Numbered from the stretch's first letter, positions 50,401-58,924 are shown. The stretch is 64,000 nt of DNA from Bdellovibrionales bacterium (GCA_027317865.1 DAHVQG010000003.1:159263-223262); one strand, 5' to 3'. The notes: generated from the letters alone by a model not told the origin. Translations and numbers: made by a program.

Positions 50401-50750
50401 AGTTGTGTGAGAAGTCGGCACAAAACGCCATAGGATTCTCGAGTTTGGCAAAGCAAATGAACAGGGGCATGATCGGCAAATAAAATTTCGGCGCCCACGA
50501 TGTAATGAAACTCGGGCCGTTCGCGGGTCGCCGCCGCCAGTTGTGAGATGGCGGTATGATATCCGCGTGGCATGCCATAAACGCCGTTTTGATCGGTTAG
50601 TGCAAGGCCCGAAAGACCGTGGGCGATTGCGGTTTTAACGAGTTCTTCGGGATGTGAGGCGCCGAGCAAAAAGCTAAAGTTCGATTTGCAGCGAAGTTCG
50701 GCATACGCAGGTAAGGGTTGCGTTTTCAGGCGCCCCGTTCGGTGGCTCAT
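47454..50750 (-). CDS. dnaE2: Error-prone DNA polymerase DnaE2 (ImuC)
   Basis: SNFSFL.GASHPEEL, GRGSAANS, PPDIDIDF, YGFPESHAASFA, LVRQRPPTA. Confidence 0.97.
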   Translation of the reverse strand: MSHRTGRLKTQPLPAYAELRCKSNFSFLLGASHPEELVKTAIAHGLSGLALTDQNGVYGMPRGYHTAISQLAAATRERPEFHYIVGAEILFADHAPVHLLCQTRESYGVLCRLLTQLKSDKQKELGRIAFADFLNFMSSPANPSSEFICLPRIELTSLQLGLLKDVFAANMALPLTFYLDGHDANRVRTIRDLSRRFELPLVASNDVEYHVKSRKILQDVLISIREGKPLSQAGFALRANAERYILTPHEMARRYRDFQPALTKTLELAESCTFSPSELRYRYPSEWIPSGFSAQTYLEHLVWTHVTDRYPSGMSDKVKKQLEHELKLIGELRYADYFLTIYDIVEFAKRREILCQGRGSAANSAVCYVLGITAIDPVQMDLLFERFISAERGEPPDIDIDFEHERREEVIQYIYEKYGRHRAAMVSAVITYQYRNALREVCKAFGLPVGTLSAKKVERNFETLIKTRPVELRACTHPRAQIEAIARELHGFPRHLSIHSGGFTLSADPITEIVPVEPARMEGRTIIQWDKYDLDTLGLIKVDILSLGMLSCLRKTLQLVNLKLYEIPRDDNATFEMIGNCDTVGVFQIESRAQMSMLGRLQPKNFYDLVIEVAIVRPGPIVGKMVHPYLRRRQGLESITYPNAIVERILGRTLGIPLFQEQIMKLAIELAGFTPGESDQLRKCINAWRTSASIGQLAGRLMDGLRNAGLSREFAEQIFEHIKGFSHYGFPESHAASFALLAYASCYLKCHFPAEFACSAVNSQPMGFYRPDTILYDAIRHGVRVLPVSILHSQWDCTVENKSENARNYKDPPAAIRLGFRLVHGISRSDVEALIAERENLQFQNLADFVHRSNIKRDILERLALAGRFAELSHPTTDNNFSEEARYNPREALWALLEYQNLFRERRKGTEWQQLNLFAESAANLPANLPLTEIKQTDIKPDQFSPLSPLEHIQNEYSAFAMSLHGHPMSELRRRVKNVPKVTSQTVRTLATGTRVKVSGMTLVRQRPPTANGVCFATIEDEHGFMDLVLWKDIFEKYREVFLNHCFITVTATVQHEGATVSLIVSKVEPIFVGKPQDRPSEPATLLKNADPTQYFYG

Positions 50751-52252
50751 TCAAACACGCCATGTAGAAAATAGGTGGAATGGCTGCTGGAGCCGCTACT
50801 CGAGCCGTGAGTCACAGTGCGGAACACCCATAAATCAGGCATTGTGGGGTCTTTTGAGATGAGCCGAAAATAAACACGCTCCACCGATGCCGGGTACGGG
50901 GTGGTGGAGCATGCGTCACCCGAGTAAATGCGAGGCTCCCACCAATCGGCGAGTAAGACTTCTTTATTACGAACGGTCCAGTGTTCCGCTGCCCATTGTA
51001 GGGGGATCGGCTTTGGCAGAAGGCGCAACGGCCGTTCAGGTAATTCGTGTTGGATTTTTTTGGCGGCTTTCGGCTGAACAGTTTCGTCGTTCGTAAGCTT
51101 TAAAGAATCCGCCTCATGCACGCGCCGCCAATTTTTTTCGGGCAAATAGCTGGCGTGGGGTTCGGCAAAAAAGACCGCTGTGGGGCCAAGACGTGTAGCC
51201 AGTCGACTTATCAATTGGAAAAATGATTCTTCATTTTCTTCTTTTTTTTGATCAAAAAGATTTTTTTGTGTGAGTGAGTAGGGAGCTGTCTCGACAACCT
51301 CAAGCCGCATTTCGCTGATGGGCCGTTCAAAAAAAGACTTCGTCTGCAAACTATTTTCGAGTTTTTCGCGCAAAATTTGAAAAATCACTTTGCTGCCGAC
51401 ATGGGGGAGTTGAATAAAAATCGAAAACCGCTTCTCGCGCTCGCTCAGAAGCGAGGAGTCGTTGGGGCCGTGATCAGCTCCAGAAGCGCACTCGTGCTGT
51501 AGAACAATGTCGATTTGCCGGGCTCGCAGGCCCGAAGCGCCATGCGAAGACGGTGTTTGTGAGCCAGCGTGAGGGGACCTTCGAGCGCGTAATCGTAAAA
51601 CCGCACGCTCAATCATTGGGCGAAGTGGGAAATAAATCATTTCTAGATTTTGCGCGGGAGCTTCTTCATCAAATACAAACCGCTCAATCACGTGCTCACG
51701 GGGGCAAAAAGGCGGCCAAACGATGTCGTTTTGCCCTTGTGCGCGCAGATAAGCTAAAAGTCCAAATCGAGAAAATCGTGAGGCGAGCTCATACTGCGGA
51801 AGTCTTAAAAAATCGCCGATGGTTTTGACCCCCATCAGGCGAAGAGTTTGCGCCATTTCAATCAGCCGCGCTTCTGTATCAAGTTGATTGCCGAGCGGGT
51901 CGACATAAAACGTTACCGCTTCAATGGGGAGTTGTGACTTGCAGTCGAGGCGAAAAAACGCCAAACCCAGTGCCGTGCCAACGTCGTCGGCTATGGCAAG
52001 ATGAGCGTCGAGGGCAATCCGTCGCAATGTGGCTCGCGTACGGGCGAGAAAAGTCGGCTCCCGATAGAGCGCTTGGCATTTTGAAATTTCTAGAAATAAA
52101 GCCTCGTAGCCTAAAGGTTTATGGTTTAAAGTTTTATAGCGACGCCATGTCACATAAGGAGTTGCCCGATAAAAAATTTCGGCAATAGTTTGGATGTCAG
52201 AAACGGGATGGGCAAAGTAAATGCATATGACGCGGGCGTGAGGATGAGCCAT
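50747..52252 (-). CDS. imuB: ImuB, inactive Y-family polymerase scaffold
   Basis: Position in cassette; LMGVKTIGDFLRLP, RLATRLG, RPLRLL, WW, LHGVF; start set at ATG 52252. Confidence 0.85.
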   Translation of the reverse strand: MAHPHARVICIYFAHPVSDIQTIAEIFYRATPYVTWRRYKTLNHKPLGYEALFLEISKCQALYREPTFLARTRATLRRIALDAHLAIADDVGTALGLAFFRLDCKSQLPIEAVTFYVDPLGNQLDTEARLIEMAQTLRLMGVKTIGDFLRLPQYELASRFSRFGLLAYLRAQGQNDIVWPPFCPREHVIERFVFDEEAPAQNLEMIYFPLRPMIERAVLRLRARRSPHAGSQTPSSHGASGLRARQIDIVLQHECASGADHGPNDSSLLSEREKRFSIFIQLPHVGSKVIFQILREKLENSLQTKSFFERPISEMRLEVVETAPYSLTQKNLFDQKKEENEESFFQLISRLATRLGPTAVFFAEPHASYLPEKNWRRVHEADSLKLTNDETVQPKAAKKIQHELPERPLRLLPKPIPLQWAAEHWTVRNKEVLLADWWEPRIYSGDACSTTPYPASVERVYFRLISKDPTMPDLWVFRTVTHGSSSGSSSHSTYFLHGVFE

Positions 52253-52844
52253 CAGATGCCTCCAACAGTGATTTTTGCGCTTCAAGCTGCAAGTGTGGAA
52301 CCCAACTCTTATGAGCTTGTCGTGAAAGCAAGAAGAAATGAGTGTGGTAAGATTCAGATAGAAGCTGGTAGCGCCGCAATTCGCGCTCAGAAAAAACGCT
52401 GACATCAGCATGACCGGTTTTAAGTGAGGGGCCAGCCACGCCAATGTCAGCGACAATAACTTGAAAGCAACCCGATTCGAGAACTTGGATCAAACACCAA
52501 TTCACTTGATTGCCGGCTTCAACAAAAAGAATATTTTGTAAATTCGCGCCCTTTTGCGACAGAGCAAACGGATGGACAGTAAGCTTGCTTGTGACCCATG
52601 CGACTCGCATCTCAGGATGTTCACTTAGAAATAAAGCCAGAGCCGTTGTTTTAGTTGGGCCGACAATTTCAATCAATGAGCCGACGGCGAATCCGTCTTC
52701 ATAAAATGAAAACGAAGTTCGCTCTTTTGTCTGGCCATCTGCTCCTAGTCGCTGGCGCAGTTCATCGAATTTTTTAAGCCGTGCGGTCGCGACATCGTCT
52801 TCGCGCTGGGCAGACAAATCAATTTGCGTAACGGATGAGTCCAT
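52197..52844 (-). CDS. imuA: ImuA, RecA-like mutasome protein
   Basis: GSLIEIVG..KT degenerate P-loop, VAWV, LESGCF, LRRYQL. Confidence 0.8.
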   Translation of the reverse strand: MDSSVTQIDLSAQREDDVATARLKKFDELRQRLGADGQTKERTSFSFYEDGFAVGSLIEIVGPTKTTALALFLSEHPEMRVAWVTSKLTVHPFALSQKGANLQNILFVEAGNQVNWCLIQVLESGCFQVIVADIGVAGPSLKTGHADVSVFSERELRRYQLLSESYHTHFFLLSRQAHKSWVPHLQLEAQKSLLEASDGSSSRPRHMHLLCPSRF

Positions 52845-53418
52845 GCATTACCCCTGCAATTCGAAAACTTTGGTGAGGTTCGACAATAATTGGTTTGTAT
52901 TTGGGATTGGCCGCGTGCAACTCAACTCGATCAGCCCGCTTTTTAAAAAATCGTTTGAGGGTCGCTTCGTCTTCAATTTCAGCGACGATGAGATCGCCGT
53001 TTTGTGCCGTGTTTTGTTCGCGAATAACCACGAAATCGCCTTCGAAAATTCCGTCGTTGATCATCGAATCGCCGACAACTTCGAGAGCGAAATAGGCCCC
53101 TGGAGTTTTGAGCATCTTGCGCGGCACTTCAAGGCGTTCGTCGAATTTATAACGTTCGAGCGGGCGGCCTGCGGCCACTTGCCCAAGAAGCGGGACCAGA
53201 TTGCCTTCTTTGTATAAAGTAAGGCCATTCGAGAGATGATGCTCTTTGGTCAGATAACCTTTCTTGATTAATGTTTCGACATAATGTTGAACCGTTGATT
53301 TGGCCGTATAACCAAAGTGCTTACCGATGACTTCATAGGTTGGTGAGACGCCGGTGCGGTTTCGATAGTTTTCAATGAAATCGAGGATGCGCCTCTGGTT
53401 AAGCGTTAAATTTTGCAT
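52819..53418 (-). CDS. lexA: SOS repressor LexA
   Basis: LTLNQRRIL, SPT, G.VAAG cleavage site, GDSM, ATLKR; SD AAGGA before ATG 53418. Confidence 0.95.
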   Translation of the reverse strand: MQNLTLNQRRILDFIENYRNRTGVSPTYEVIGKHFGYTAKSTVQHYVETLIKKGYLTKEHHLSNGLTLYKEGNLVPLLGQVAAGRPLERYKFDERLEVPRKMLKTPGAYFALEVVGDSMINDGIFEGDFVVIREQNTAQNGDLIVAEIEDEATLKRFFKKRADRVELHAANPKYKPIIVEPHQSFRIAGVMHGLIRYAN

Positions 53419-53467
53419 GTTAGTCCTTTGCGAGTCTTGGTTCATTATATAAGGCCATCGGCAACTA

Positions 53468-53517
53468 CCGTACTTTTATCGTACTTTCACAATACCCGTA
53501 CTTTTATCGTACTTCAA
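53468..53517 (-). promoter_or_regulatory. lexA sigma-70 promoter overlapped by two 19-bp direct repeats (candidate SOS boxes)
   Basis: CCGTACTTTTATCGTACTT at 53468-53486 and 53496-53514; minus strand TTGAAG-N17-TATTGT at 53517-53489. Confidence 0.8.
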
Positions 53518-53714
53518 GAGTTTTTTTGAGGCATAACCAAACAAAGTGGGCGCATTGATTCATTTTGGAGCATCGATGCCGCGTCAAATGGCTGCTCAAC
53601 ACTTTAATGCGGGAGGGGGCTGTCAAACAAAGAGCACAAATGATTTTTCTTCGCCTGGCTGAGTTTATGTTACAATTGTATAAATAATGTACGTTTATGA
53701 AAGGGATTTAATTT

Positions 53715-54479
53715 ATGGGACAAAATCTGCGTCTCGTAATATTAGACTATCCAAAGTTAATGTTAGACCAAGATACGGTTCGACGGGCATTTGCCGACAT
53801 GATCGTCGTCAAGCAAAAGAATTTTGCCCGAACTTCAGAATCGTACGTCAGTATGGGACCGCTCGACATGATCAGCACCCATTTCTTAATTTATGATCAA
53901 ACTCAAGTTTACGAACCCCGGCTGGCAGGCGGGTTTCGTTGCTGCTGGGGCAATCGGACTCGTTACCACAAGCTCAGCCTACCCATAGAAGAGTACATTA
54001 CCTATGCGCCGATTGAGTATCGAAAGAAGTTTGAAGAATTTCGATCGACAAGGCCGGTGATTGTCGACGGCAACGCTTGGTTTGTCGATCCCGAATACAC
54101 TTATTCGAAATCCGGCTTGCGGCTTTCTGAATTAATCTACACGGCATTCGTACAATTCATTGTGCGCAAGGGGTTCGATCATTACGTCGGGGCCGCGAAC
54201 GAAAAATACAAAGCCTCGAGGTGGGCGATGCCGACTGGATATACGCGGGATGGAATGATATTTACCCATCCCAAAGTGCCGGATCCTCATAAACTTTTAT
54301 TATTTGAACATTTAAATTATGAGTGGCTCTACGACTGTTCGATGCAATATGCCGAGTTCATTTCTCAGAGGGTGGAGGTAAAGCCCGAAACCTACCCAAC
54401 TCCTGAAACTACAATGTCAGTTGAGGATGCGGTGGAGCTCATCCAAGCAAGAAAGCGAAGCGATTCAATCGCGGCTTAA
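53715..54479 (+). CDS. LuxI/FeeM-like GNAT-fold acyltransferase (divergent)
   Basis: KQKNF, LDMISTHFLIYD, LAGGFRC, LP, VDGNAWFVDPEY follow the order of AHL / N-acyl amino acid synthase blocks; SD AAGGGA. Confidence 0.5.
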   Translation: MGQNLRLVILDYPKLMLDQDTVRRAFADMIVVKQKNFARTSESYVSMGPLDMISTHFLIYDQTQVYEPRLAGGFRCCWGNRTRYHKLSLPIEEYITYAPIEYRKKFEEFRSTRPVIVDGNAWFVDPEYTYSKSGLRLSELIYTAFVQFIVRKGFDHYVGAANEKYKASRWAMPTGYTRDGMIFTHPKVPDPHKLLLFEHLNYEWLYDCSMQYAEFISQRVEVKPETYPTPETTMSVEDAVELIQARKRSDSIAA

Positions 54480-55340
54480 AAAAATGCAATCGTTGAATTC
54501 AGTTTCGTAAACCGAAGCCTCGTCGCCTTGGCTTACGCATTTAACGGTCGACATCGGCAACGCCGGTAGGCCACATTGTGAGATTACATTGCCGAACATT
54601 TGTGAGCGATAGGCATAGAGTTCAGGAGAGCCGTATTTTGGATTTTTCGTGGCTTCTATAAGTAACTCCGTCGGTTTACAAATGATTCTGACCTTATTAG
54701 GCCAAACTTCGAAATCATAAGTAAAGTTCTCATCGAACGATTTTGTGGCTTCGGCCACGACTTCCCACGCTTCTGCATACCGGTGGCACTGGCGAAACAA
54801 ACGAGCCCCGGCTTGATCTTCTTCGGTGGTTAAATAGATAAACCGTGAAAGGCGCTGAATATCTTCAATGGTGTTACCTAGCGCAATGAACTCCCGCAGT
54901 AAATCTTCAAAAAAAGTGATGCTGATGCGATTTGATATAAATCTAAAATAGTCGGGGTGAACGCCCATCCGGTAGAGAATGCCTTTTGCATAATACGCTC
55001 CGTAACGCAAATTCATATATTCGACGATATGCCGGGATGACATTGTGTAACTAAAGGCGTTTGTTAAATATTTAGGATTTATTTTATCGTCAAAATCAAG
55101 AATTCCAGTATCTACGGTAGACGCCGAAATGCGGCCGTTGAGTAAATCATCGTCGGTTGCTCCCAGCGCCCAGGTGAGATTTCGAATTTTAGAAATTGGA
55201 AAATTCGATTCGTGGTGAACCCACCACCTCATGCAATCACTGGCTGAAACATCTAACTTTTGGGCAAGTTTTTGCAGCGAGACCCCGTGCTTATCGACGA
55301 GGCGACGGAGTCCCTGATTGAGGTCGGTGGTGGTTGCCAT
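54465..55340 (-). CDS. XRE-HTH regulator with C-terminal V4R/H-NOX-like ligand-binding domain
   Basis: N-terminal SLQKLAQKLDVS HTH; C-terminal KCVSQGDEASVYETEF resembles the V4R C-x-x-x-G-D motif. Confidence 0.6.
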   Translation of the reverse strand: MATTTDLNQGLRRLVDKHGVSLQKLAQKLDVSASDCMRWWVHHESNFPISKIRNLTWALGATDDDLLNGRISASTVDTGILDFDDKINPKYLTNAFSYTMSSRHIVEYMNLRYGAYYAKGILYRMGVHPDYFRFISNRISITFFEDLLREFIALGNTIEDIQRLSRFIYLTTEEDQAGARLFRQCHRYAEAWEVVAEATKSFDENFTYDFEVWPNKVRIICKPTELLIEATKNPKYGSPELYAYRSQMFGNVISQCGLPALPMSTVKCVSQGDEASVYETEFNDCIFLSRD

Positions 55341-55355
55341 AAAAGGCGTTCAGCG

Positions 55356-55640
55356 CTAGCTCGCGCGGCGGTGTTTTTTGCCGTGTCCGAAAAGATTTTC
55401 AACGTCGTCTTCAGCACAAACGCGATAAATCTTACGAAAACGGTTTTGGTCCATTTTTAATAGGCCAATCGTTTTGGCCAACATGGATTCCGGCATCATG
55501 ACATGACCTTTTTCAATTTTACCAAGAAACTGTGCGGAACAGCGCAAATTCTTTGCTAAAACCGTTTGGGTCATGCTGAGTTGGCGGCGGCGTTCAAAAA
55601 TGTACGCGCCAATCATTTCTGCGAGGAGTGAGTGTCTCAT
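55356..55640 (-). CDS. XRE-family HTH transcriptional regulator
   Basis: IGAYIFERRRQLSMTQTVLAKNLRCSAQFLGKIEKG; SD AAGGA. Confidence 0.88.
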   Translation of the reverse strand: MRHSLLAEMIGAYIFERRRQLSMTQTVLAKNLRCSAQFLGKIEKGHVMMPESMLAKTIGLLKMDQNRFRKIYRVCAEDDVENLFGHGKKHRRAS

Positions 55641-55843
55641 AGTGTTGCCATCCTTTTTTAGGGTTATCGTACCCGTTGTTTACTTTTCAGCGGCAAATAT
55701 ACCCTATTGCGGTTCTCGACGCAATAGAGCAATTTTGTCTAGATCAATTTTTGTCGGCAGCTTATTTCGTAAATTCAATAAGTTTAAAGAAAAGTTCTTC
55801 TGTGACCTATAGAGATATTCTAAATGTGCCGAAAAGTGACAAT

Positions 55844-56713
55844 ATGACCAAATTTTATACACAGACGTACACGCGTAATTGGCCGGTTATTCCGCAAGAA
55901 ACTCAAGAGAAGTTAAGCCGACTTAAAGTTGCTGTAGCGGGCTGCGGTTCAACCGGCGGTGGTTTTATCGATGGGCTGCTCCGCCTTGGTGTGCAGTCCT
56001 TTCACCTGGCCGACGATGGCGCCTATGAACGGAATAACCTTAATCGACAGTTCGTATATTTAAACGATATTGATCGAAACAAGGCAACCGTGCACGCCCG
56101 TCGCATTAAGGAGTTAAACCCGGAAGCCAATGTGCAGGTGTGGAGCGAGGGTTTGACCGAAAATAATGTTTTCGACTTTGTAAGTGATTGCGATTTTGTT
56201 TTCGACGCTATTGATGTTACGACTGCGGCCGGCATGGCCATGAAACTACGACTCCATGAAGTGCTACATGAAAAGCGTGTGCCGACCGGATCGGCTTTAG
56301 ATCTCGGCTATAAACAGTGGCTACAAAGCTACAATTACCATCTGGGCGAAGACGTTTTGAAAGGACGGCTAAGTCAGGCGCGAGCATGTACAAACCCGCT
56401 TCACGCTGTCTTTGAGGGGTTTTGTGCGGTAGAAGAGCTGCCGCTCGAAATTACTGAAGAATTAATTCGTTTGCTTCAAACCCCCGGCGCCAATTGCTGC
56501 CAACTCGCATGCGTGTGTTTTTTGCTTGCTGGTATGGCAACTCCGTACATGATTCATTTCATTGAGACAAATCGCCTGCCGAATCTCATCACAATGGATT
56601 TACTCGATCCCTACTTAAGCGCGAGGGAGAAACGTGAGCGGGCCGCAAAAACTATCGATGCGCATCGCCGCTTACGTGCAATTCTTGATGGGCTTGAATT
56701 AAAGGCGGCCTAA
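55844..56713 (+). CDS. ThiF/E1-like adenylyltransferase
   Basis: GCGSTGG, DDGAYERNNLNRQ, NKA, DAID; lacks the MoeB CxxC pairs; start set at ATG 55844. Confidence 0.88.
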   Translation: MTKFYTQTYTRNWPVIPQETQEKLSRLKVAVAGCGSTGGGFIDGLLRLGVQSFHLADDGAYERNNLNRQFVYLNDIDRNKATVHARRIKELNPEANVQVWSEGLTENNVFDFVSDCDFVFDAIDVTTAAGMAMKLRLHEVLHEKRVPTGSALDLGYKQWLQSYNYHLGEDVLKGRLSQARACTNPLHAVFEGFCAVEELPLEITEELIRLLQTPGANCCQLACVCFLLAGMATPYMIHFIETNRLPNLITMDLLDPYLSAREKRERAAKTIDAHRRLRAILDGLELKAA

Positions 56714-56731
56714 CCGCAAGGTGTAACGACA

Positions 56732-57523
56732 ATGTCGTCAAAAAAATCGTACTTTTTTTTACACTACGGCCCCGGTGGTAACTGCGACGCCGAACGTTCG
56801 TACTGGGGTTCTGATAAGGGGATATACTTTTGGGACCAACCGGCGGCAACGACCTTCGAGGATCTCGTTCAAAGTTGCGTTAGTAAGTTTGAAACCTACG
56901 CCCAACAAAATCAGTGCCAAGGCATCATCGGGCACAGCTTTGGTTGCGATTTGGCCGTTGAAATGGCAAAGCGTCTGAAGCATCTGCCGGCAAAAGTCAT
57001 TCTCATCGCGCCGATCCCCAATCTTTACATAGCATTTGAAAATTTAGCGAAAAGAGTTTTGAAAAGCGGTGATGTCGACGCGACGATTCGAATCGCCATA
57101 GAAAGTAAATTGGGGTTACTAAAGTCGGTTGATATTTCGTCGTTATGGGACCTCGTATTTAGCACGTACCAATATCCAAATATTGGCCGCATTTTTTGGG
57201 CTAAAGACAGTGCCTTTGCCGAATACGCAAACCGTTCAAAAACATTTAAAGCAATGGATTTGGGAGTTTGGCAAAACATTTTAACCGACTATGTTAAAAA
57301 CTATAGTCCGGTACTGTTGAAAGAAAACCCGGAACCGCAACGAGATAGAACCTGGGCTTACATGGGCAGGCATGATCCCTATACGGACGGCAACAGCAGC
57401 GAATCTGACCAATGGCTAAAGATCGCGCGCCCGGAGCACATTTTAGTTGATGAAGATTCAGGCCATTGGCCCCATCTCGAGAGCGCAAACACGTTTTTAA
57501 AATTTATATCAGGGGTCGATTAA
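56732..57523 (+). CDS. Alpha/beta hydrolase
   Basis: HYGPGG oxyanion motif, GHSFG nucleophile, GRHDP, SGHWPHLE. Confidence 0.88.
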   Translation: MSSKKSYFFLHYGPGGNCDAERSYWGSDKGIYFWDQPAATTFEDLVQSCVSKFETYAQQNQCQGIIGHSFGCDLAVEMAKRLKHLPAKVILIAPIPNLYIAFENLAKRVLKSGDVDATIRIAIESKLGLLKSVDISSLWDLVFSTYQYPNIGRIFWAKDSAFAEYANRSKTFKAMDLGVWQNILTDYVKNYSPVLLKENPEPQRDRTWAYMGRHDPYTDGNSSESDQWLKIARPEHILVDEDSGHWPHLESANTFLKFISGVD

Positions 57524-57692
57524 ACATTAACGACGGGTTTACAACTATTTGTGCTGGTTGTGATTATTTGGCTCAAATTCCGCACAATCACACCGAAAAG
57601 AATGAGCACGTTTTAGTTTGCGCACGGGGTGCAGATTAAGAGCGCGACATTTAACACGGGCAAATAGACCCGCGAACTCAAGGAGGTTCTTA

Positions 57693-58103
57693 GTGAAATC
57701 ACGCACATTCAATTACGCCGGAAAAAAAATCAAAGCCTATTATAAATCTGCAGGCAAAGGTTATGAAGTGGGGGTGTGCTACGGTTCAAAAACACTTTTT
57801 GTCGGCAACTTTATTCATTCGGCAGAAGCTACGGCTTGGTACGGCCTTATGGGTAAAGAGATTGGTCGCGTCAGCCGCAAATTTCATGGTTGGAAAGCGC
57901 AACCCACGCCGTTTCATTGGAAGTTTGTCAGCAACACCCTCTACAAACACTACTACGATTATTTAAACCGCTGTTTTGACCAACACACGAAAAATTACCA
58001 TCGTCAATTCAATCAAGATGTCAAAACTTGGAAGCAAATGAAACGCCACCCAAAATCAGCGTGGAACTCACGTGCGGTCGCTTACACGCGACGCGCGGCA
58101 TAG
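57693..58103 (+). CDS. Basic, aromatic-rich hypothetical protein
   Basis: Strong SD AGGAGG before GTG 57693; ends TRRAA. Confidence 0.7.
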   Translation: MKSRTFNYAGKKIKAYYKSAGKGYEVGVCYGSKTLFVGNFIHSAEATAWYGLMGKEIGRVSRKFHGWKAQPTPFHWKFVSNTLYKHYYDYLNRCFDQHTKNYHRQFNQDVKTWKQMKRHPKSAWNSRAVAYTRRAA

Positions 58104-58111
58104 TTTGCGGC

Positions 58112-58924
58112 TTACGGTAAATGAGTTCGATTCGGCATCGGCCATTGCGCGCGATAGGCGTATAGGCCGATGCTTGTTGCTGCAACAGCGTTGAGCGAAT
58201 CCATGTCCGGCTTCATCAAAATCGAAAGTCGGTGGCTCGTATAAGGTTCTGCCGAAAATTCCGCGGGAATGCCTTTGCCTTCTTCGCCAATAAGTAGTCG
58301 AAAATTTTTTGGGAATTTAAACTGCGAAATGTCGCGACCGTTTTTATCGAGCGCCCATAATTCGGCGGCCATTTGCGGTGACGCCAAAGCGTGAATCGAT
58401 TGGCCGTGTGCGAGCGTGTTCGACCAACCAAGCCGTAACGCTGATCCGCTCGACGCCCGTATTACTCTAGGCAAAAACGGATTGGCGCACTCAGATAGCA
58501 AAATCACTTTGTCGACGCAAAAGGCTTCGGCGGAACGCAGTGCTGCCCCTAAATTAAGCGGATTCGAAAGGGCCAGCAGAAGTTCTAGGCCGCACGGTGA
58601 TTTGGCAAAGTCGAATTGTTCTACAGGCGGGATCTCCCCCCAAACAATTGGATAATGGGTGCCCAAAATATCAAGTTCATCAAAGAGCTTTTTTGCAAGC
58701 TCGATGACGGGTGTTGAATTCGCAGGTGAGAGATCTAGCCCGTTGAGCGACATATTCGGTGCGACGATTATAGCTTTCGCCTTTTTTTGAACCCGTGCAC
58801 AAAACTCTGGAACAAGCCTTCGGCCCGAAAGCAAAAACTCGCCATATTTGTTTATACCGGCGGAATTCAGCAGTGATATAAGACGTTGAAATGTCGAGTT
58901 GGCGCGGCTGTCGATACGTTTCAT
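58112..58924 (-). CDS. TrmH/SpoU family RNA methyltransferase
   Basis: [31 protein letters not shown]; start set at ATG 58924. Confidence 0.92.

Follow-up and report, generated by a model that had tools for sequence, protein, structure and literature searches.

We analysed a cluster of five genes (O1 to O5, Table 1) in a stretch of 64,000 nucleotides (nt) from a Bdellovibrionales bacterium (DAHVQG010000003.1:159263-223262), the whole of which is referred to below as the window. The first gene, O1, encodes an acyltransferase-like protein of the LuxI/FeeM type, and is accompanied by genes for a regulator with an H-NOX-fold domain (O2), an XRE-family protein (O3), a ThiF-family enzyme (O4) and a serine hydrolase (O5). 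These genes very probably work together. For the cluster as a whole, the chances appear about even that it specifies a desaturase-less, oxazolone-type N-acyl amino acid pathway, the product of which is sensed by the H-NOX-fold regulator. This reading draws on the protein folds and intact catalytic motifs, on the linkage of the genes, on ThiF and the hydrolase varying in concert, and on the finding that no sulfur carrier exceeded the cut-off. The enzyme core is of a known kind, and what is new here is the lack of a desaturase, the co-varying serine hydrolase, the tightly linked XRE/H-NOX-fold regulator and the phylum.

The enzymology of acyl-oxazolones has been worked out since 2020, and the purpose of these lipids is described as still debated (PMC12856293). 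In the cluster identified here, the synthase is tied more tightly to a cytoplasmic ligand-fold regulator than to tailoring enzymes, making the role of the lipids directly testable, and Bdellovibrionota would gain a candidate system of self-produced chemical signals. If O1 and O2 do form a synthase–receptor signalling module, this would be a candidate lipid signal circuit that predatory Bdellovibrionota make themselves, and would assign a signalling role to oxazolone-type lipids. Genetic analysis is feasible, because the cultured Pseudobdellovibrio exovorus JSS carries a distant version of a trio of these genes, and Bdellovibrio sp. HCB337 carries O1 together with ThiF, in the latter case with no O2.

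The linkage of the genes was analysed in 27 loci from a one-genome-per-species scan and 19 loci from searches of relatives and of 251 genomes of the phylum, in addition to the window. Iterated hidden Markov models (HMMs) built from the window proteins were run over all loci, and one duplicate (L059, the same as L035) was removed before counting; close relatives remain among the loci, and the counts are therefore not independent events. A convergent O2 gene was detected for 35 of the 43 full-length O1 genes whose 3′ end is followed by 1 kb or more of sequence, and it overlapped O1 in 32 of these 35. Around the 31 O1 genes flanked by 5 kb on both sides, we identified O2 in 25 cases, an XRE gene (at most 3 kb from O1) in 24, ThiF in 21, the hydrolase in 20, and both ThiF and the hydrolase in 16. 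When the neighbours in 43 loci were clustered, the recurrent families were O2 (36 loci), ThiF (27), XRE (26) and the hydrolase (22, plus five with a more distant hydrolase); histidine kinases (9) and response regulators (7) also recurred. The O1–O2 pairing persists in the most distant members (approximately E 1e-7 to 1e-14 with the profile of the O1 alignment, A1), including P. exovorus JSS, and the position of O3 is often occupied in these distant clades by a second full-length gene of the O2 type. ThiF and the hydrolase are located on either side of the O1–O2 pair and in either orientation, yet adjoin each other. Since it recurs across the phylum, the arrangement is far beyond chance, and the genes co-occur widely across Bdellovibrionota.

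With high confidence, O1 can be classified as an acyltransferase of the LuxI/FeeM structural branch. The structural model of O1 (mean predicted local distance difference test, pLDDT, 95.8) gave FeeM, BjaI, MesI, EsaI, RpaI, LasI and TofI as the best matches, with ordinary GNATs ranked below. The structural alignment covered approximately 175–200 residues with acyl-homoserine lactone (AHL) synthases and FeeM, as compared with approximately 145 residues with ordinary GNATs. In tests of the fold, both the GNAT-derived alpha/beta/alpha fold of solved AHL synthases and the fold of FeeM (2g0b) were matched. The preliminary description of this DNA had proposed a GNAT/LuxI fold for O1 from short sequence blocks; the structure search agrees with this proposal, and the blocks fall on conserved columns of a 58-sequence alignment of the O1 family (K33/Q34/F37, D51...T55-H56..I59-Y60, R75, P90 and D118/N120/F123-V124-D125). 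A GNAT toxin–antitoxin system was considered separately and ruled out by the length of O1 (254 residues), its AHL-synthase/FeeM architecture, and a regulator that is convergent rather than co-transcribed.

At the level of sequence, the links of O1 to known synthases were faint. A phmmer search of the PDB with O1 yielded no match, and the three matches found with the O1 profile were all at chance level (E 0.37–1.2). PF21926 (FeeM) was weakly matched by eight of the 58 family members (best E 8.6e-5), and one distant relative, P0085, exceeded the cut-off of PF13444 (27.1 versus 22.4 bits). The alignment of A1 with a TraI alignment by hhalign was weak (probability 10.9%, E 0.0028), and its register was unreliable in the N-terminal half. 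In this low-confidence alignment, D118, N120 and A121 of O1 are paired with E101, S103 and R104 of TraI, respectively; the acid is thus kept and the Arg, which is invariant in the TraI alignment, is replaced by Ala. Compared with FeeM, O1 is approximately 60 residues longer, gives no PF21926 match at E<=1, and has conserved motifs of its own (NEKYKASRW and an invariant H192). In view of these faint links to FeeM and TraI, O1 is the founding member of a new family within the AHL-synthase/FeeM structural branch, in neither of the two Pfam families; it is a Bdellovibrionota family without a Pfam model. We collected 61 relatives of approximately 250 amino acids, the few named ones of which all belong to Bdellovibrionaceae or Bdellovibrionales. 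A HMMER scan of 1.84 billion representative proteins for this family detected 168 proteins at E<=1e-3 and 24 at E<=1e-30, and no credible fusion was found among these representatives, the long matches being repeat proteins hit in many short stretches.

These results bear on whether O1 and O2 form a true AHL pair, in which O1 would use S-adenosylmethionine (SAM) and an acyl donor to form an acyl-homoserine lactone, and O2 would replace LuxR as the sensor. LuxI/LuxR-type AHL pairs of the esaI/esaR type are convergent and overlapping, as are O1 and O2. AHL synthases conserve an N-terminal Arg/Phe/Trp set, two Asp residues, an Arg on strand 3 and Glu-x-Ser-Arg on strand 4. However, O1 lies outside PF00765, which was also absent from the 24 Pfam families matched by any of the 58 family members; a search of the whole genome for PF00765 gave no match either, but carries little weight since the search controls were equally silent. 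The weak hhalign result, with Ala121 opposite the invariant Arg of TraI, and the direction of the faint sequence signal, which is towards FeeM and not LuxI, also argue against an AHL synthase. The conserved ThiF partner is known to act after N-acyl amino acid synthesis; to our knowledge, AHL synthesis does not involve a ThiF enzyme, and partners of the ThiF and hydrolase types are not a feature of AHL systems. The partner of O1 differs as well: LuxR consists of an autoinducer-binding domain and a GerE HTH (helix–turn–helix), whereas O2 consists of an N-terminal XRE HTH and an H-NOX fold. An AHL-type product is thus very unlikely, while the proposal of a non-LuxR partner, namely a DNA-binding protein with a small-ligand-type domain, agrees with the present results.

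Alternatively, O1 might acylate another acceptor, such as an amine, a peptide, or a nucleotide-linked or carrier-bound substrate, and the ThiF enzyme might activate a different carboxylate. The best and longest structural matches of O1 are with the AHL synthase/FeeM group, its sole sequence links are with FeeM and PF13444, and the pairing of such a synthase with ThiF has one characterized meaning to date; we regard another acceptor as distinctly improbable. Based on the fold and the gene partners, the product of O1 is probably an N-acyl amino acid.

The second enzyme, O4, matched PF00899 (E 3.8e-30, 105 bits). Among 21 sequences, the GxGxxG motif, N121/N123/R124/Q125 (NxNRQ), K136 and D180 were invariant, indicating that the adenylation site is intact; judging from the motif rather than from an alignment, D180 may be the counterpart of D217 of TrzS. 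O4 is the sole PF00899 gene in the 99%-complete genome, in which no ThiS/MoaD protein (PF02597) reached the cut-off, the best score (20.6 bits) being obtained within a 751-residue open reading frame (ORF). In addition, no Cys is conserved among the O4 homologues. For these three reasons, O4 is not a sulfur-carrier activator, and it differs in the lack of both a partner above the cut-off and a conserved Cys from the ThiF/MoeB sulfur-carrier systems. The same results suggest that the organism is devoid of the usual thiamine and molybdopterin sulfur-carrier systems. Prediction of a complex between O4 (residues 57–345) and O1 gave a score of 0.00 in a run without controls, which has no weight either way.

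A tblastn search with O4 against 72,556 plasmids detected five records, four from Riemerella and one from Nitratidesulfovibrio, and no synthase gene was located beside the ThiF gene in the one Riemerella plasmid context inspected. The plasmid gene most similar to O4 is on Riemerella anatipestifer plasmid NZ_CP081938.1 (4998–6505); this ThiF gene likewise converges on, and overlaps, a gene with an HTH regulator annotation, with no synthase nearby.

The hydrolase O5 matched Abhydrolase_6 above the cut-off (29.2 bits), and its catalytic triad, S69 (within GHSFG), D215 and H245, was invariant among 16 homologues. A profile search of the PDB with O5 detected generic esterases and hydrolases only. 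ThiF enzymes of type A were paired with one hydrolase subtype in eight of eight cases. At one locus, L038 (6253–7859), the ThiF and hydrolase genes are only 25–30% identical to those of L036, L039 and L041, as compared with 62–88% for O1 and O2; the two genes have been exchanged there together, between two deeply diverged types of ThiF and hydrolase. The co-variation of the subtypes and the joint replacement in L038 indicate that ThiF and the hydrolase form one module, and from these sequence comparisons O5 is taken as the functional partner of the ThiF enzyme.

Members of the O1 family nearly always terminate with two small residues (the C-terminus of O1 is encoded at 54450–54479 of the window). 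Lys or Arg often precedes these two residues, and the tail before them is variable; among 88 sequences (duplicates and three truncated ORFs included), the endings were AA in 35, AS in 12, VA in 8, AG in 7 and VS in 5. The last four residues, R-S-A-A, are invariant in an alignment of 25 TraI AHL synthases. In sequence terms, this small-residue C-terminus looks like a proteolysis tag common to signal synthases, or a recognition element. Cap2 acts on the C-terminus of a CD-NTase in the antiphage system CBASS (cyclic-oligonucleotide-based antiphage signalling system), and by analogy O4 might adenylate the small C-terminus of O1, with the hydrolase reversing the modification; besides the nature of these C-termini, the generic match of O4 with E1–E2 (Cap2-type) models and with Cap2 structures is in line with such a protein target. 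However, the same type of C-terminus is encoded by O1 genes that lack a neighbouring ThiF (L023, L025, L028 and L017) and is present in TraI, which has no ThiF partner; a proteolysis tag fits better for this reason. O4 has neither an E2 domain nor a conserved cysteine, and no gene of the ubiquitin-like (Ubl) or JAB type recurs in the loci. Altogether, a protein as the target of O4 is highly improbable. A search with PADLOC detected only generic E1 similarity for O4 and HTH similarity for O2 and O3, and nothing for O1 and O5; a defence system was dropped as an explanation.

Synthase and ThiF genes are combined in several characterized pathways. In Pseudoalteromonas rubra, OxzA is reported to make N-acyl tyrosine or phenylalanine, while OxzB is a ThiF–nitroreductase fusion, and adenosine triphosphate (ATP) is needed for oxazolone formation (10.1101/2020.06.11.147165). 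In Mycobacterium tuberculosis, TyzA is reported to acylate amino acids, the ThiF homologue TyzB to cyclize the products with ATP, and TyzC to desaturate them; the closest structures to TyzA are given as FeeM 2G0B and BjaI 5W8C (PMC10404671). In the case of TrzS, ThiF-mediated cyclization is described as the first step, and a saturated ring-closed intermediate accumulates without oxygen (PMC12856293). According to the same report, oxazolones are labile to acid and alcohols, a flavin desaturase accompanies nearly all known oxazolone ThiF genes, and the role of these compounds is ‘a major unresolved question’ (PMC12856293).

The cluster in the window resembles the Oxz, Tyz and Trz systems in that a FeeM/BjaI-like synthase gene lies beside the gene for a ThiF-family enzyme acting on a small molecule, and in that the adenylation motifs of O4 are intact; the nearest solved structures of O1 are those of TyzA. 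This likeness is one of kind, and O1 and O4 need not be orthologous to the characterized enzymes. The cluster had been described as an undescribed island; this no longer applies to its core of synthase plus ThiF, which has been published as OxzAB, TyzABC and TrzAS (a connection absent from the preliminary description), but does apply to the absence of a desaturase and the addition of the hydrolase and regulator. Unlike the known systems, a Ser-Asp-His hydrolase co-varies here with ThiF, an XRE/H-NOX-fold regulator is the most constant partner, and the phylum is Bdellovibrionota. No nitroreductase or flavin desaturase was detected among the five genes or in the recurrent neighbour families scanned with Pfam, and the two PF00881 genes of this genome are located on other contigs. 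In our literature searches, nothing was found on Bdellovibrio with an N-acyl amino acid synthase, or on ThiF with LuxI and GNAT; among the papers listed on LuxI or autoinducer synthases in Bdellovibrio, judged by titles and abstracts, none was on the O1 family.

Based on these comparisons, we propose the following pathway. O1 would transfer a fatty acyl group, from acyl-coenzyme A (CoA) or acyl carrier protein (ACP), onto the amine of an amino acid, leaving a free carboxylate for O4 to adenylate. The adenylated N-acyl amino acid could then cyclize to a saturated oxazolone or similar ring, or be handed over in the form of an activated acyl group, and the serine of O5 would open or transfer this labile activated species. 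With no flavin desaturase involved, the expected product is distinct from the yellow arylidene oxazolones of the known pathways; the partnership of a ThiF cyclase with a serine hydrolase, in place of a flavin oxidase, likewise points to chemistry unlike that of the known arylidene compounds. The lipid-like product would be bound in the H-NOX-fold pocket of O2, and O2 together with O3 might control the divergent O3–O2 and O4–O5 promoters via a palindrome between them.

The structural model of O2 (pLDDT 90.5) consists of two parts. A profile search assigned the N-terminal HTH to XRE-type repressors, and the C-terminal domain (approximately residues 97–285) matched the H-NOX fold, which is also the fold of the VirS ligand domain and of the V4R sensor domains of the XylR/MopR type. 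The preliminary description had proposed an HTH–V4R receptor; the HTH was upheld, whereas H-NOX fold is the better description of the ligand domain. V4R was at best a weak lead, being the nearest named Atlas cluster but at 0.81, which falls short of the lead level, and the MopR sensor domain appearing only at rank 49 in Foldseek, and O2 matched neither the H-NOX nor the V4R family in Pfam. A word search with O2 gave four close relatives, and the wider family was gathered from the DNA beside O1 genes. Among 25 O2 homologues, the conserved columns were Y91, G114, I139, D146, D203, N205, F206, Y244 and R245, and no His was invariant or conserved at 90% or more. In contrast to H-NOX proteins, the O2 family thus has no conserved His, making H-NOX-type heme ligation unlikely; a small hydrophobic ligand is more plausible than heme. 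Our literature search found no paper on an XRE–H-NOX fusion. The second regulator, O3, gave matches just below the Pfam cut-offs with HTH_31 (E 5.3e-5) and HTH_3 (E 2.3e-4).

In the divergent region between O3 and O4, we identified the palindrome listed in Table 1, which is the sole perfect copy in the window (0.38 matches expected at up to three mismatches). It is kept at the same place, with two mismatches, in a genome of the same genus (G006). No second copy was found upstream of O1.

Several observations weigh against the proposed pathway and its sensing by O2. First, the cluster is known here from its genes and predicted folds, from which we infer the chemistry, and the substrates of O1 are likewise deduced from its fold and gene context. 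O1 itself matched no Pfam family at E<=1, PF00765 and PF21926 included, and no NCBIfam model. Secondly, neither ThiF nor O2 is obligatory, since 10 of the 31 loci with 5 kb on both sides lack ThiF near O1 and six lack O2. Thirdly, O4 scored lower with the NCBIfam model of the Rv1355c (TrzS) family (59.7 bits, cut-off 476) than with PRK08223 (89.6) or the true ThiF model PRK08644 (81.2), all three scores being below the cut-offs, and ThiF here lacks the fused or neighbouring flavin or nitroreductase desaturase of the Oxz, Tyz and Trz systems. A saturated oxazolone is labile and may not be the end product; moreover, the authors of the stieleriacine paper regard the part played by ThiF in related N-acyl tyrosine clusters as ‘enigmatic’. 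Finally, the palindrome is not conserved in loci beyond the genus, and the linkage and fold that connect O2 with the product make sensing of the product by O2 possible, if somewhat doubtful.

The same chemistry could also operate without any signalling, yielding a membrane or envelope lipid, an antibiotic or a stress metabolite, while O2 and O3 would respond to a precursor, a prey-derived lipid or a gas. In line with such a role, the known oxazolones were recovered mainly from cell pellets (PMC10404671, PMC12856293). Furthermore, ThiF, the hydrolase, methyltransferase and desaturase genes vary around O1 like the tailoring genes of biosynthetic clusters, and the cluster is a variable accessory feature, being detected in two of the seven same-genus genomes searched (that of the window included) and absent beside trmH–pheS in two others. 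On the other hand, the most constant partner of O1 is the regulator O2 and not a tailoring enzyme (36 of 43 loci versus 27 for ThiF), and its convergent overlap with the synthase over deep divergence is more typical of synthase–receptor pairs than of generic regulators. On balance, a purely non-signalling role appears rather unlikely. At the other extreme, O1 and O2 may represent a new class of synthase–receptor signalling, an analogue of LuxI/LuxR built from different parts with a heme-less H-NOX-fold XRE receptor, in which the ThiF–hydrolase module (elsewhere a methyltransferase) would mask and unmask the carboxylate to give a neutral, membrane-permeant form, either ring-closed or esterified; this too is improbable. 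Action of the product as an extracellular signal is likewise unlikely. Between these extremes stands the desaturase-less pathway with a product-sensing regulator, as proposed above, and a make–sense–destroy circuit, as suggested in the preliminary description, may be how it operates.

The genes that vary around O1 were analysed further. A class-I SAM methyltransferase gene is located near O1 in 11 loci, mostly without ThiF, and several of these genes abut or overlap O1. The methyltransferase may provide an alternative modification of the same product; its presence where ThiF is missing would, speculatively, fit a common theme of carboxylate masking. In subsets of the loci, we also detected fatty acid desaturases (two clades), a FadL-type outer-membrane porin, an acyl-CoA dehydrogenase whose gene separates O1 from O2, and pyridoxal phosphate (PLP)-dependent (PALP) enzymes adjoining ThiF. 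The lipid and carboxylate themes among these neighbours speak for the proposed pathway. The occurrence of the cluster is patchy: it was detected in nine of 61 close relatives and in 19 of the 251 genomes of the phylum, and the two same-genus genomes mentioned above carry trmH–pheS–pheT without any of its genes alongside. This patchy occurrence indicates that the cluster is an accessory island.

Table 1. Positions of the genes and sites discussed in the text; loci other than the window are given as locus:positions
Feature	Position	Strand	Size	Description
O1	53715-54479	+	254 aa	Putative N-acyl amino acid synthase, LuxI/FeeM branch of GNAT fold
O2	54465-55340	-	291 aa	Regulator, N-terminal XRE-type HTH and C-terminal H-NOX-fold domain; putative sensor of pathway product
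O3	55356-55640	-	94 aa	XRE-family HTH protein; same strand as O2 and immediately upstream of it (gap 15 nt)
Palindrome	55704-55727		perfect 8-N8-8	Divergent O3/O4 promoter region; candidate operator for O2 or O3
O4	55844-56713 from likely start (longest ORF 55676-56713)	+	289 aa	Stand-alone ThiF-family adenylating enzyme
O5	56732-57523	+	263 aa	Alpha/beta-fold serine hydrolase, 18 nt downstream of O4
O6	57618-58103	+	161 aa	Basic protein, function not assigned by family match; adjoins the cluster, outside the conserved set
Methyltransferase genes near O1	L048:7339-8121, L052:6237-6998, L055:3836-4654, L027:5713-6501			Examples; seven more loci
Lipid and amino-acid neighbours	L023:6801-7775, L036:5309-6250, L039:10117-11190, L049:7780-8973, L039:2588-3931, L016:6213-7061			

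The layout of the cluster is given in Table 1. The places of the five ORFs, the 15 nt shared by the convergent O1 and O2 (54465–54479) and the nature of the flanks are as initially described. Upstream of the cluster are genes for LexA (TIGR00498, 166.7 bits) and an error-prone DnaE2-type polymerase. Two ORFs between them (50747–52844) gave no NCBIfam match at E<=1e-10 and, judged by position, presumably correspond to imuA-like and imuB-like genes. A SpoU-type methyltransferase gene and pheS are located downstream. O4 most likely begins with the ATG at 55844, since the same-genus orthologue has in-frame stops upstream, before the conserved ATG. With this start, O3–O2 and O4–O5 form two divergent units approximately 200 nt apart, and O1 is a single unit convergent on O2. 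A promoter and terminator scan of 53400–58200 detected sites no more numerous than in shuffled sequences. The neighbouring O6 gave no match in Pfam, NCBIfam or PADLOC; among the loci examined, it is present only in the window and in a same-genus genome (77% identity), at the same place after the hydrolase.

A repeated sequence was also noted around the cluster. The 9-mer TTATCGTAC occurs three times in the 64 kb (53476–53484, 53504–53512 and 55664–55672), against 0.23 expected. Two of the copies lie in a 19-nt direct repeat just upstream of lexA, and the third is between O3 and O4, in an 11-nt stretch missing from the orthologous region of the same genus. TTATCGTAC may be a shared operator half-site, which in this genome alone could, for example, place the cluster under SOS control.

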